From an uncultured Clostridia bacterium (lineage in GTDB: Bacteria; Bacillota; Clostridia; TANB77; UBA1234), in NCBI GenBank assembly GCA_934149305.1, contig CAKPEF010000003.1, positions 64,268-128,267 of the forward strand: DNA of 64,000 nt, given 5' to 3'. A program made the translations under genes and the position numbers. The notes beneath the pieces are model-generated. The model ran no database searches. It was not told the DNA's origin and was given only the letters and a program-made list of their open reading frames with translations. Of this stretch, positions 16,486-47,782 are shown piece after piece. Every line of letters starts with the position of its first letter. Position 1 is the first letter of the stretch.

Positions 16486-16555
16486 ATGTAGCTTAAGCTT
16501 AAGTGTGCACTGTAAAATTAGTAAATACAACCATAAATAAGATGGAGGAGATAGT
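16486..16555 (+). repeat. diverged copy of the GTGCTCCATAAAA repeat family with fused leader and RBS
   Basis: ATGTAGCTTAAGCTTAAGTGTGCACTGTAAAATTAGTAAATACAACCATAAATAAGATGGAGGAG; parallels 47719-47782. Confidence 0.7.
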
Positions 16556-17035
16556 ATGCAAAACAAAGAATTTATAAATAAAGAAAACGGCATAACAATG
16601 GTAACAGTAATAGTGATGGTAGTAGTTATTACTATAATTTCTGTTATGTCTATAATATCTTCAAAAACTATCTTTAAAGAATCAAAAGAAGAAGCTTTAA
16701 AGCAAAATAAATTTGCAGTAGAAACCGCTGTATCAAAATATGCAGCTAAAGCCGCAACAAGCGGGGTATTAACACCAGCAAATGTGCCACTACCAGGTTT
16801 GCAAAATCCAGAGTTTGAAAAATTAAGCGGTGATTCAGAAGAAAACTATGAAAAAATTAAAGTTGGAGTCGGAAAGGACTGGTATTTACTTAGAAAAGAT
16901 GAATTAGAAAGCATAGGGGTAACATATATAAATGAAAATTATCTTGTAAATTATAAAAAGAACATAGTAATACCGCTTTCAACTAGTGAAGATGTATTTT
17001 CACTTGTTGAATACTATGAACAAAATGAACAATAG
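16556..17035 (+). CDS. hypothetical protein with N-terminal TM helix (weakly prepilin-like)
   Basis: GGAGG RBS; NGITMVTVIVMVVVITIISV hydrophobic segment after a Gly; no canonical G-F/M-xxxE motif. Confidence 0.5.
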   Translation: MQNKEFINKENGITMVTVIVMVVVITIISVMSIISSKTIFKESKEEALKQNKFAVETAVSKYAAKAATSGVLTPANVPLPGLQNPEFEKLSGDSEENYEKIKVGVGKDWYLLRKDELESIGVTYINENYLVNYKKNIVIPLSTSEDVFSLVEYYEQNEQ

Positions 17036-17044
17036 ATAAAAAGA

Positions 17045-17105
17045 CTATCATGATTCTTGAAATATTATTTCTATATAACATTTCAAAAATCGTGATAGTC
17101 TTAAT
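17045..17105. terminator. long-loop hairpin between convergent genes
   Basis: GACTATCATGAT ... ATCGTGATAGTC arms with AT-rich loop, T/A runs on both sides. Confidence 0.5.
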
Positions 17106-17126
17106 TTTTGAGGTAAACTATGTACC

Positions 17127-17714
17127 TTAAAAATCTATTTGTATCACACTATATTTAGTTAAATTATTCTTTGGATTTATACCTAAAGTAATTGATATAT
17201 TATTCATATTAGTTGATTCGCCATCCTCGTTTTTAGAGATATCGCAATTTATAAATATTTTTTCACCATTTCTTTCAATTTTATTTATCTTAGAGATTTT
17301 AAAATATTCTGGTGAAGAGCCTAAGTAATAGTAATATGAGTTTTCACTATCATACAGATAATAAAAATCATCAATAACAATTGGAGCTTCAATATAAAGA
17401 CCTGTTAATTCACTAATTAGAGTATGCAAAGTATCTTTTTCAACATATTGAAAATACACATCATCTTGGTTACCATCATTCGCAAGACCGATTTCAGTAG
17501 CGTACTGCATTGCAACATCTAATAGCATACTTTCAGAGTATGAATCTTTAGAAAAATTGCCCAAATTCACTAAAATATCTAAATGAGCATCTTGCTTAAT
17601 TGTATCAATTTCTTCTTTTGATGTTATAGACTTATTTGCACCAAAAATGCATATAAAAATGGTGACAATTGCAATAGATATTAGTGCGATGACAGGCAAT
17701 AAAAACTTTTTCAT
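17127..17714 (-). CDS. hypothetical membrane-anchored protein
   Basis: GAGGAGG RBS then ATG (MKKFLLPVIALISIAIV TM anchor); the track start at 17729 is GTG inside the RBS. Confidence 0.6.
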   Translation of the reverse strand: MKKFLLPVIALISIAIVTIFICIFGANKSITSKEEIDTIKQDAHLDILVNLGNFSKDSYSESMLLDVAMQYATEIGLANDGNQDDVYFQYVEKDTLHTLISELTGLYIEAPIVIDDFYYLYDSENSYYYYLGSSPEYFKISKINKIERNGEKIFINCDISKNEDGESTNMNNISITLGINPKNNLTKYSVIQIDF

Positions 17715-17887
17715 AATAATCCTCCTCACGGTACGCTAGTTATGTGTAATAATTATAACATTTCTACATTAAATCTCAATAAAATAAACCTTAAATTTAT
17801 GTTACAGTTTTATTACAAATATGACCTATATGTTACTACTACGCAGCTATAAAAAATGCATATCGGATGTAATTGTATTTTATGGCA

Positions 17888-17920
17888 ATGTAGCTTAAGC
17901 TTAGGGGTGCTCCATAAAAA
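17888..17920 (+). repeat. GTGCTCCATAAAA family copy
   Basis: ATGTAGCTTAAGCTTAGGGGTGCTCCATAAAAA. Confidence 0.85.
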
Positions 17921-17965
17921 TATTACTGTTTAGCATTTAACATAAATTAAGGGTTACTATATAGG

Positions 17966-18044
17966 CTTCAAAATAAAAGTATATGCCAAATGTAAATGTA
18001 TGCTATAAAAATGTCGAGGAGCTTAGGCGTGCTCCATAAAAACA
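17966..18044 (+). repeat. about 80-bp direct repeat (copy 1) containing a GTGCTCCATAAAA core
   Basis: CTTCAAAATAAAAGTATATGCCAAATGTAAATGTATGCTATAAAAATGTCGAGGAGCTTAGGCGTGCTCCATAAAAACA; about 95% identical to 20831-20910. Confidence 0.9.
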
Positions 18045-45292: not shown

Positions 45293-45953
45293 TGTATTAA
45301 CTCTTTTTCCAGAAATGTTTGAGCCAGTAAAGCAAAGCATAATTGGAAGAGCAATGCAAAATGGGTTAATTGAATTGAATTTAATAAACTTTAGAGAATT
45401 TTCAAAAGACAAACAAAGGCATGTTGATGATTGTCCTTATGGTGGCGGTGCAGGTATGGTTTTAAAGCCAGAACCAATATATGATGCATATGTTTCTATA
45501 ACAAAAGACTTAGAGTATAAACCAAAGGTTATATATCTTTCTCCAAGAGGAAGAGTTTTTAATCAAAGCATTGCTAAAGACTTATCAAAAGAAAATCATT
45601 TGATTTTGCTTTGTGGTCATTATGAAGGCGTTGATCAAAGAGTTCTTGATGAAATTGGAGCAGAAGAATTATCGATTGGTGACTATGTCTTAACAGGAGG
45701 CGAGCTTCCTGCAATGGTAGTTATAGATGCAATAAGCAGAAATATAGAAGGCGTATTAAATAATGAATCAATAAAAGATGAATCTTTTAACGATGGATTA
45801 TTAGAATACCCACAATACACAAGACCAGAAGAATTTATGGGCAGAAGAGTACCAGAGGTTTTGCTTTCTGGACATCATGCAAATATTGAAAAATGGAGAC
45901 GCGAGCAATCGGAGGAGATAACGAGGGCAAACCGTCCTGATTTAATAAAATAG
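45279..45953 (+). CDS. trmD: tRNA (guanine37-N1)-methyltransferase TrmD
   Basis: FDVLTLFPEMF, DDCPYGGGAGMV, LTGGELPAMV SPOUT motifs. Confidence 0.9.
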   Translation: MMKFDVLTLFPEMFEPVKQSIIGRAMQNGLIELNLINFREFSKDKQRHVDDCPYGGGAGMVLKPEPIYDAYVSITKDLEYKPKVIYLSPRGRVFNQSIAKDLSKENHLILLCGHYEGVDQRVLDEIGAEELSIGDYVLTGGELPAMVVIDAISRNIEGVLNNESIKDESFNDGLLEYPQYTRPEEFMGRRVPEVLLSGHHANIEKWRREQSEEITRANRPDLIK

Positions 45954-45988
45954 CTATGACATAAAGCCATAGTAGAAAGGAGAAAAAA

Positions 45989-46360
45989 ATGGATAAAATA
46001 AAAGCTATTGAAAACGAACAATTAAGAGCTAACAAGCTTGAATTAAATGTTGGTGATACAGTAAAAGTACATGTTAAAATTAAGGAAGGAAACAGAGAAA
46101 GAATCCAAGTATTCGAAGGAACAATTATTAAAAGACAACGTGGTGGTTCAAACGAAACATTCACAGTTAGAAGAATTGCTTACGGTACAGGAGTTGAAAG
46201 AACTTTCTTAGTAAACTCACCAAAGGTAGAAAAAGTTGAAATCGTTAGACATGGTAAAGTAAGAAGAGCTAAACTTTATTACCTAAGAGACAGAGTTGGT
46301 AAAGCAACAAAAGTTAAAGAAGATATCGCAACAAAAAATGCAACAGAAGAAAACGCATAG
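45989..46360 (+). CDS. rplS: 50S ribosomal protein L19 (with short C-terminal extension)
   Basis: [49 protein letters not shown]. Confidence 0.9.
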
Positions 46361-46383
46361 TTTCATATAATATCTATTTAAGC

Positions 46384-46427
46384 CTAAATTATTACAAGTT
46401 TAATGATTTAGGCTTATTTTTTATAAA
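46384..46427 (+). terminator. rho-independent terminator after rplS
   Basis: AAGCCTAAAT..ATTTAGGCTT plus T6. Confidence 0.8.
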
Positions 46428-46558
46428 TTTGAAAAGTAACCATTTGTGGCTGTATTTCCAAATATTACATTCACTTTTAAGTTGACATCACAATGTAATG
46501 GGTTATATAATTGGGGTAAGTTGAAACCTAAATAATATAAACACGGAGGATAATTCTT

Positions 46559-47482
46559 GTGGTTAATGCACTGAAACTTATGGAGAAAGCCAATAGTCAA
46601 TTTATGAGCGCAAATTCTGATGAATTAGGCATAGACTATAAACTATTTAAAAGCATTGCAACTCGGTGTGGATATTCCATTTTAGAAAGAAAAGAAGGAT
46701 ACAAAAAACTCTTTAAACTCAGAAAAAGTGGTATTCCACTGGTTAAATTATATCCGTATGAACAAGACAACACATTTAATTTTTTAGATATTTCAGATAT
46801 TCATGTTGGAAACAAAATGTTTGATCCTGACAAATTAAGAAGCATACTCGAAGCAGCAAAAAAGAGAAATGTGAGACAAGTTTTTATTGCGGGAGACATA
46901 TTTGAGGCAGTATATGATAGCGCAGAATACGACTTTAGAATTATGAGCTCCAATAAACAGAAATATATAGAAAAGCGTTTTAAGGATGAGCTTTATAGAG
47001 TTAGCAAAATATTCGCTGAGTATCCGTTTGATTATTATGCAATCAACGGTAATCATGAATACGAATATGAGCAGCTTGGCATAGAAAGTCCGATAAAACA
47101 GCTTGAAGAAAAATTAAGACGATATGGGGTTAACTTCAACAGTTACGACACATATATTGTAGATTTTTTAATAGCTGGTGTTATAAAGCGCGTTATGCAT
47201 CTTGAAAGTTTTTACACGCAAAAAACGGTCTGCGCATCGCTCGAAAGATTGTATGAATTTAATAGACACGGAGGCTTAAATGTAAAAATATCCGAAACCG
47301 AAAAAGTTCCGATTAGATTTTTAGAGTGTGGGCATGTTCACCTCACGATGGAACTTTATAGTGCAAGGCATAATGTATATGTTATGCAACCTGGTTCACT
47401 TATCGTGACAGAAAATCCATATGAATCTGGGATTTTTGCTAGAGGCGAAGTGACAAAAGAAAGAAATATCGTAAGGTATTAA
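46559..47482 (+). CDS. calcineurin-like metallophosphoesterase
   Basis: DISDIHVG, GDIFE, GNHEY, GHVH motifs; GTG start after GGAGGA. Confidence 0.7.
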   Translation: MVNALKLMEKANSQFMSANSDELGIDYKLFKSIATRCGYSILERKEGYKKLFKLRKSGIPLVKLYPYEQDNTFNFLDISDIHVGNKMFDPDKLRSILEAAKKRNVRQVFIAGDIFEAVYDSAEYDFRIMSSNKQKYIEKRFKDELYRVSKIFAEYPFDYYAINGNHEYEYEQLGIESPIKQLEEKLRRYGVNFNSYDTYIVDFLIAGVIKRVMHLESFYTQKTVCASLERLYEFNRHGGLNVKISETEKVPIRFLECGHVHLTMELYSARHNVYVMQPGSLIVTENPYESGIFARGEVTKERNIVRY

Positions 47483-47640
47483 GATTAAGGAGCTTTGAAG
47501 AAATTCAAGGCTCCTTTTATGAAATATTTTAATTAAAGATATTACGATTTTAATTCCAATTTTTATATATTTAGTATATACTGTATATATTATGAAACTT
47601 ACATGAGTAGAGTAAACTAATTTATAAAACAGTTGCAAAA

Positions 47641-47782
47641 ATGTAGCTTAAGCTTAGGCGTGCTTCATAAATCAAAACATTTTGAACAAATATTGTAATC
47701 AACAATGAAATGCAAAAGATGTAGCTTAAGTGCGCTCCATAAAAATTAGTGAACACAACCATAAATACAAGGGGGAATAAAA
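47641..47782 (+). repeat. two GTGCTCCATAAAA family copies, the second fused to the leader and RBS of the PstS-like gene
   Basis: ATGTAGCTTAAGCTTAGGCGTGCTTCATAAATC ... ATGTAGCTTAAGTGCGCTCCATAAAAATTAGTGAACACAACCATAAATACAAGGGGGAATAAAA. Confidence 0.85.

Follow-up and report, generated by a model that had tools for sequence, protein, structure and literature searches.

Correia elements (CREE/NEMIS) of Neisseria are short non-coding miniature inverted-repeat transposable elements (MITEs) with inverted ends, which lie dispersed in intergenic regions, frequently 5' of a gene, are transcribed together with their neighbors and carry promoter boxes able to drive them (PMC3184786). The contact-regulated REP2 repeats of Neisseria and the IR repeats of Borrelia plasmids are instead situated immediately upstream of unrelated open reading frames (ORFs) with a constant leader, and contain a promoter together with a ribosome-binding site (RBS) and an ATG without having inverted ends (PMC3184786). 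In a 64,000-nt stretch of DNA (hereafter the window) from an uncultured Clostridia bacterium (contig CAKPEF010000003.1, positions 64,268 to 128,267), an initial annotation made from the sequence alone had proposed a cassette of the latter kind, i.e. a leader and RBS traveling with a repeat and placed in front of unrelated genes. By our analysis, the conserved block of this leader is in all likelihood (at a probability of roughly 0.8) the right terminal inverted repeat of a small non-coding MITE, here called B-type, of low-GC uncultured gut and rumen Clostridia.

Functionally, the Correia elements are the nearest system, as B-type likewise appears to be a non-coding MITE with inverted ends, situated between genes on their 5' side and equipped with a promoter-type box. 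Correia elements duplicate TA, as opposed to 8 bp here, show no sequence similarity to B-type and reside in another host phylum; no fixed distance to start codons has been reported for them, whereas the placement described below is anchored to the start codon. The REP2 and Borrelia IR repeats come closest to what was initially proposed for the window, but their RBS and ATG are inside the repeat, while here these are host sequence next to an element with inverted ends and target duplications. Among the Firmicutes, bcr1 (Bacillus cereus group) and RUP and BOX (Streptococcus pneumoniae) are intergenic MITE-like repeats of ~100-160 bp, which resemble the present elements in being modular, hairpin-folding, co-transcribed with their neighbors and strain-variable. 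They differ in sequence and in target (TTTAT for bcr1, TA for RUP), and we know of no RBS-anchored placement described for any of the three. REP/BIME sequences with their RAYT likewise have numerous intergenic copies and a strand bias. They also show a GTAG ahead of a short palindrome, which here is seen in the hairpin variant of the core (TGTAGC-GGAGCAC-AGT-GTGCTCC) and not in the TTAAGCTTAGG variant that dominates the window. REPs have neither inverted ends nor target duplications, both of which are present here.

Window copies are read on the plus strand throughout, and block coordinates refer to the start of the AATT... block. All four leader strings quoted in the initial annotation exist in the window on this strand, with coordinates off by 1-8 nt; the blocks begin at 16516, 21968, 29693 and 47744, and each comes after a copy of a core repeat, the 13-mer GTGCTCCATAAAA. 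Of the proposed ~40-nt leader, the shared block stands and the length does not, as the homologous part is the 17 nt AATTAGTGAACACAACC. In a multiple alignment, column conservation drops right after ...ACAACC, beyond which the copies have in common only an AT-rich 8-mer, a generic GGAGG or GGGGG and the ATG. The 22-mer TTAGTGAACACAACCATAAATA starting at 47746 recurs at 16518 with two mismatches, so that two sites were found at a threshold of at most two mismatches where none are expected in shuffled sequence, and 9-mers similar to GAACACAAC occur at 21975 and 29700, at the same offset past the core. When a 17-nt profile built solely from 14 copies in other genomes was run on both strands of the window, its three best matches were 47744 (E=7e-4), 21968 (0.055) and 16516 (1.1). 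The copy at 29693 is weak, matching at 12 of 17 positions by our count, and is missing from the matches of this profile. A fifth copy of the block, at 34480-34496 and ahead of an ATG at 34521, had been missed in the initial annotation.

B-type elements occur in a short form of 92 bp and a long form of ~132-138 bp, both devoid of ORFs. They consist of a left end (GRYAGNGTAAACTAATTTATG), the core in mid-element and the right end AATTAGTGAACACAACC, to which the long form adds an internal ATCAATTGATAGCAGTACACTAAAAT...TATAAT. The termini, GRYAGNGTAAACTAATT compared with the reverse complement of AATTAGTGAACACAACC, are inverted repeats, and the elements have 8-bp duplications of their AT-rich target on either side. 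Four of these duplications are perfect (8/8), in the loci from other genomes or metagenomes denoted L038 (TAAACTTT), L080 (ATAAATGA and AGTACAAA) and L098 (CATATTAA), while 6/8 positions match in L045, L007 and the window copy at 16441. Together with a sister family, A-type (see below), perfect duplications amount to eight cases (L002, L009, L011, L044, L038, L080 twice, and L098), each with a chance probability of ~3e-4 per site in such AT-rich DNA by our estimate. A short non-coding body, inverted ends, a fixed duplication length and sites that are filled in some strains and empty in others are among the features by which a MITE is recognized, and all four were found here.

Filled and empty sites were compared in strain variants retrieved via the LexA protein, which are 92-100% identical to one another in the flanks. 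Five sites are polymorphic between strains, namely the mcsB-clpC junction, the corA-lexA spacer, two sites upstream of a gene encoding an S-layer protein with SLH domain, and the segment 17856-18080. At the mcsB-clpC junction (26216..26241, plus strand), the window and L043 have an empty target, ...CAAATA-ATAGAAAG-TAAGGAGGAATAAATATG, which is uninterrupted up to the ATG and includes TAAGGAGG. In L045 and L048 the site is occupied by a 138-bp B-type element ending in ...TATAATTAGGGTGCACAACC, preceded by ...CAGATA-ATATAAAT and followed by ATAGAAAG-TAAGGAGGAATAAATATG. This comparison places the end of the element at ...ACAACC and identifies the next 8 nt as the duplicated target, with the Shine-Dalgarno sequence (SD) and the ATG already in place before insertion. 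Similarly, L044 does not contain the segment of the third quoted copy upstream of the S-layer gene, and retains the same ATATTGAAAAGAGGGGAA.ATATG. The SD and the ATG are consequently sequences of the host gene, outside the repeated unit, and the notion of a translation-initiation or RBS cassette has to be abandoned, since the empty sites at clpC and at the S-layer gene of L044 already hold both signals and homology stops at ACAACC. The block is nevertheless portable, as had been suggested, considering its inverted ends, 8-bp duplications and presence or absence between strains, and the genes it precedes are indeed unrelated, in that their products share no function. In the window these are a pilin-like protein, CorA, the S-layer protein, a DUF2628 protein and a PstS-like lipoprotein; in other genomes they include a BlaI-like repressor, a histidine kinase, an M29 aminopeptidase, a NUDIX protein and PheS.

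A pattern scan of contigs from one genome per species gave at least 42 loci, and at least ~30 of the listed core loci derive from metagenome-assembled genomes (MAGs) of uncultured gut and rumen Clostridia with 26-35% GC. Proteins encoded at these foreign loci are only 45-60% identical to those of the window, and the loci themselves are mostly non-orthologous, yet the core is identical. In seven loci (L001, L004, L007, L016, L018, L025 and L038), AGTGAACACAAC follows either the core or the internal TATAAT. When metagenomes were scanned with the 17-mer, true copies were only found in L061, L080, L098/L127, L099 and L124; about 70 of the 92 matches to AATTAGTGAACACAACC (L053-L144) represent a chance match in a single, widely sampled conserved locus, probably enterobacterial, upstream of a gene for a winged-helix regulator. 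Against plasmids and phages, BLAST with the region and with either element returned short chance matches only, and a scan of viral contigs likewise gave chance matches.

Several observations weigh against a MITE origin of the block. The B-type inverted ends are imperfect, agreeing at ~12-14 of 19 positions by our own comparison, and no duplication could be recognized at 21906, 47606, L018 and L025. Most window copies are without the hairpin form of the core, and the core is better conserved than the element ends and common to families with different ends, something that a plain MITE model leaves unexplained. Lastly, the ~0.5 Mb of loci examined contained no autonomous partner whose ends match.

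As for other explanations, a chance likeness of AT-rich spacers and generic RBSs would account for the weak copy at 29693 and for the similarity outside the 17-nt block, which is indeed generic. It can be dismissed almost entirely, given the two matches where shuffled sequences predict none, the selection of the same sites by the foreign-copy profile and the identical blocks in other genera; for three of the four quoted copies, chance is ruled out. The idea favored initially, namely a conserved promoter/5' untranslated region (UTR)/RBS cassette that is retained as a shared target of a sigma factor, a repressor or a small RNA (sRNA), with the downstream genes forming a regulon, has more in its favor and is still improbable. 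Repeats carrying promoter, RBS and ATG are known (Neisseria REP2, Borrelia IR; PMC3184786), a -10-like box adjoins the block in every copy, the leader is nearly constant in length and across genera the 13-mer core hardly varies. Against this stand the SD and ATG already present in empty sites, the inverted ends, target duplications and strain differences, the lack of a common function among the downstream genes, and the absence of both a conserved -35 and a conserved RNA structure; in addition, the spacing between TGTAGC and GTGCTCC (6, 10 or 12 nt) is unfit for a two-block promoter.

A structured cis-regulatory RNA common to many mRNAs, such as a riboswitch-like or protein-binding leader, is hardly tenable. 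Many copies are situated in 5' UTRs directly before the SD, and the A-type (z -5.4) and the GATAGT...ACTATC forms (z -2.8) fold well, but the inverted ends account for this. The window leaders fold no better than shuffled sequences (z -0.02, +0.70 and -0.74), the RNAalifold consensus reaches -0.83 kcal/mol with essentially no covariation, and in most copies other sequence has taken the place of the stem's left half, with no compensating change. Rfam yielded no family at the gathering threshold, nor at E<=5, and the suggested co-regulation at the RNA level hence finds no footing in these leaders. Very doubtful, too, is a REP-like element moved by a RAYT or an IS200/IS605-type single-strand transposase that recognizes GTAG and the hairpin GGAGCAC-AGT-GTGCTCC. 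The hairpin form does have a GTAG just 5' of its 7-bp stem, and all 17 window copies of the core are on one strand, the leading one by GC skew. However, 8-bp duplications and terminal inverted repeats are not made by that family, most window copies are without the hairpin (having TTAAGCTTAGG for GGAGCACAG), and the window showed no Y1 transposase; a REP/RAYT identity was rejected on the grounds of the duplications and the inverted ends.

The position of the B-type MITE relative to genes is strikingly regular. Among 17 independent copies, 11 have their right end 23 nt from the ATG and 15 have it at 21-24 nt; the exceptions are the corA copy (19 or 25 nt) and a copy that precedes a terminator. 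The right end is oriented toward the gene in every copy, and the 8-bp duplication falls at -23..-16, i.e. ~3 bp (range 2-4) upstream of GGAGG, while at the left ends of the B-type copies examined no start codon falls at this spacing. Because the recent strain-specific insertion at clpC already fits this spacing, and A-type elements of similar size are tolerated elsewhere, the site would appear to be chosen at insertion and not by slow selection. The B-type transposition complex would then select the SD region as its target. A possible cue is the host sequence just past the duplication (TAAGGAGG, ATAGGAGG, GTAGAAAGG), which resembles the left tips of B-type elements (GGTAGAG, GATAGCG, GGCAGTG). 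The insertion sequences IS30 and IS911 target sequences like their own ends, and by pure analogy could be a model for landing next to TAAGGAGG-like sequences akin to GGTAGAG; end-like sequences as the cause of targeting are, however, speculative. What weakens the case for targeting is the small sample of 17 copies, and selection against other positions may be a partial cause of the spacing.

In its full form, the proposal is that the insertion machinery recognizes translation-initiation regions in a single orientation, with the duplication at -23..-16, and thereby delivers a -10 box and a ~33-nt leader, making the element a mobile promoter/UTR module that uncouples genes from their operons (e.g. 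clpC from ctsR-mcsA-mcsB). We regard this as tentative and, on balance, rather unlikely to hold in every part. The elements would represent a new MITE family, whose preference for targets also appears to be new; nothing comparable was found in the literature searched by sequence and by topic. MITEs as such are common; to our knowledge, none landing at a fixed distance from, and orientation to, start codons has been described. If real, the targeting would constitute a new kind of transposon site choice, in which the ribosome-binding site is read in DNA, and a ready means to rewire single genes within operons of abundant uncultured gut Clostridia. As strains already differ at clpC, lexA and the S-layer gene, metagenomes and metatranscriptomes would lend themselves to a test of the effect.

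With regard to expression, a -10-like hexamer overlaps the first bases of the right end in every copy, being TATAAT in the long form and TAAAAT or AAAAAT in the short one. Situated ~7 nt before GTGAAC, this box may add a start site giving a ~33-nt leader; if the element is a promoter, transcripts would begin at ...TAGTGAAC. No conserved -35 was found among the copies, which counts against promoter delivery, and in a consensus promoter scan the window was no richer in promoter-like sites than shuffled sequences. In L061, a solo right end directly after a terminator shows the arrangement TTAAAA-N17-TATAAA, which suggests promoter use. Promoter delivery by the element is plausible on these grounds, although unproven and somewhat less than an even bet, and of the initially suggested promoter capture by a mobile repeat it is the mobile repeat that is supported, the promoter part amounting to the -10-like box without a conserved -35. 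Other copies are found downstream of TTGACA-N17-TATAAT promoters (L021, L034, L098) or within operons (mcsB-clpC, L080), so that in the observed orientation the element would be transcribed through, as part of the 5' UTR or of the spacer within an operon. Taken from the opposite strand, the hairpin form is a hairpin followed by a T-run and was flagged by a terminator scan, which could explain why only one orientation survives. For annotation purposes, upstream motifs shared in these genomes should be taken with caution, as transposon ends and not as regulon signatures. A separate arrangement was seen in L016 (~2230-2330), where in place of a gene a terminator hairpin (GGACATGCTCAAACGAAAGCATGTCCTTTTTT) comes after a right end (TATAATTGGTGCACACAACC); this may be a tiny sRNA of ~50 nt derived from a MITE end.

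Five B-type copies, in various states of preservation, underlie the blocks in the window, all on the plus strand. The complete short form of 92 bp (16441..16532) has the left repeat AATAGTGAAAACTAATTTGTG, a core at 16487-16517 and the right repeat at 16516-16532; it is flanked by CTAAACAA (16433-16440) and ATAAATAA (16533-16540), 6/8 identical, and the ATG at 16556 is 23 nt past its end. Upstream of corA, a decayed copy (21906..21984) consists of the left repeat GGTAGCGTAAGTTAGTTTGTG, a core at 21939-21969 and the right repeat at 21968-21984, followed by ATGs at 22004 and 22010 (19 and 25 nt past the right end). Before the SLH S-layer gene only a right half is present (29664..29709), with a core and the weak right repeat AATCATAGAACACAATT, an ATG at 29732 (22 nt past the end) and two further cores ahead of it, at 29552-29584 and 29639-29669. 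A long-form right half (34442..34496) comprises ATCAATTGATAGCAGCACATTAAAATCTGAAAAATAT, a TATAAT box (34477-34482) and the right repeat AATTAGTGAGTGAAACC (34480-34496), and is 24 nt from its ATG; its internal module also occurs in L001, L004, L016, L025, L037 and L045. The last copy, a 155-bp composite (47606..47760), has the left repeat AGTAGAGTAAACTAATTTATA, cores at 47642-47672 and 47714-47744 and the right repeat at 47744-47760, with the ATG of the gene for the PstS-like lipoprotein at 47783, 22 nt past the end.

The left ends of the elements have peculiarities of their own. In B-type copies, for example in the window (16441-16470), L080 and L098, the left end resembles a translation start, with the purine-rich tip GGTAGAG, 11 nt and then ATG AAA AAA TAA. 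In L012 (~7600-7660), a 13-codon ORF (MESKILKIKHSVK) with a strong SD stops inside the left end, of the GATAGTGTTAAGTAA type, of a core-bearing element, and in several loci such left ends provide the stop codon of the upstream ORF.

The sister family, A-type, is 133 bp long and has the same core in mid-element, but its nearly perfect ends (GTAACTATTCAGTCTTC / GAAGNCTGAATAGTTAC) are unlike those of B-type. It also makes 8-bp duplications, perfect in L002, L009, L011 and L044, and its copies are found at assorted intergenic positions without a link to start codons, again polymorphic between strains. The window harbors an empty A-type target, AGCTTTTG, at 29297..29304 (plus strand), which in L044 is filled by a 133-bp A-type with the perfect duplication AGTTCTTG. 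Another A-type copy occupies the spacer between corA and lexA in L045, L048 and L052 and is absent from the window. Filled sites in the window, both on the plus strand, are a 225-bp composite insertion with two A-type copies at 17856..18080 (cores at 17889-17921 and 18011-18043, A-type proper at 17953-18075), all of which is missing in L044 with flanks 95-98% identical, and a 133-bp A-type with a 7-bp end duplication at 20819..20958, in the spacer between the tmRNA and a 3D-domain gene. The latter has the ends GTTACTATTTAGTCTTC ... AAGGTTGAATAGTAAT(CAGTAAC) and is flanked by the 8-mers AAAATATA and AAAATATT.

A DDE-type transposase acting in trans would presumably move both A- and B-type. Two candidates for the autonomous partner were considered and appear unrelated. 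One is an insertion sequence of the DDE_Tnp_1 type in L048, whose visible right end is unrelated to the elements and whose left end is outside the sequence seen; the other is the segment between two MITEs in L002, which contains ordinary-looking ORFs, the first of which had been read by eye as a XerC-like recombinase. The L048 transposase gene, encoding 576 aa, replaces a MutS2-like gene (MutS_V domain, 18358-20283) that is present in the window, L043 and L044 and absent from L045 and L049, where position 17726 joins 20350.

The core itself occurs in the window as 12 exact copies of the 13-mer and about five variants, all of them intergenic. On its 5' side it is preceded by TGTAGC-GGAGCACAGT, which forms a 7-bp hairpin with GTGCTCC, by TGTAGC-TTAAGCTTAGGC, by TGTCGA-GGAGCTTAGGC, or by shorter forms. 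A tandem array of five core copies with periods of 47 and 64 bp is found at 34183..34441 (plus strand), its 64-bp unit being GGTAGGCA-TGTAGCGGAGCACAGC-GTGCTCCATAAAAACC plus a 24-bp spacer. Each such unit resembles a minimal element (GGTAGGCA...CCATAAAAACC) followed by the spacer, and since these "spacers" are conserved, an integron attC or CRISPR-like array was rejected. A solo core (GATGTAAAAGTGTGCTCCATAAAA) is situated at 48815..48842 (plus strand), between the gene for the PstS-like lipoprotein and the next gene. Three further views of the core were discarded, i.e. a micro-element of 22 bp nested in the larger one and making a ATAAAAAT duplication itself (5-6/8 positions agree in most flanks, which fits a conserved A-rich context better), a mini-ORF (ATG-TAG; MKNCSGAQCAP), whose ATG is not conserved, and a sigma-factor promoter made up of TGTAGC and CATAAAA, where block spacing varies and many copies are too near the SD. 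Outside the window, the goat rumen MAG JAFSUW01 (L006, L013, L026) has a further subfamily, in which the hairpin core appears in the fixed context TTGCAAACT-core-CTAAACAAAATGTTAAA.

A core-like hairpin, GGAGCTT-AAGCC-AAGCTCC, is also found in the 5' UTR of lexA (23117..23140, plus strand), where it is followed by ATAAAGGAG directly before the SD. This hairpin, with its stem GGAGCTT/AAGCTCC touching the SD, is kept in all strain variants, and upstream of it is a TTGACA-type promoter with an SOS-box-like GAACGAATTTTTGT.

In other respects, the window is an ordinary low-GC (~30%) chromosome of Clostridia type, with nearly all genes on the plus strand and a positive GC skew on the same strand, and a 12.6-kb human-gut metagenome contig from the Hadza is 100% identical to part of it. 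Its genes include pth, RNase G, rpsF-ssb, the MutS2-like gene, the tmRNA (minus strand), the 3D-domain gene, corA, lexA and ctsR-mcsA-mcsB-clpC, as well as the SLH S-layer gene, ffh and the genes for the PstS-like lipoprotein and for a P-type ATPase. At 10761-13301, the one large gene of that part of the window to be on the minus strand encodes an 846-aa protein with weak matches to TraG/VirD4 coupling proteins. Upstream of the S-layer gene, at 29390-29515, a small ORF (MNAKTLEAVTHTHTHT...) with a (CA)n run encoding Thr-His repeats is followed by a strong terminator-like hairpin. The number of CA repeats differs among the window, L044 and L045, and the ORF may serve as a leader-peptide attenuator or else as a phase-variable switch.

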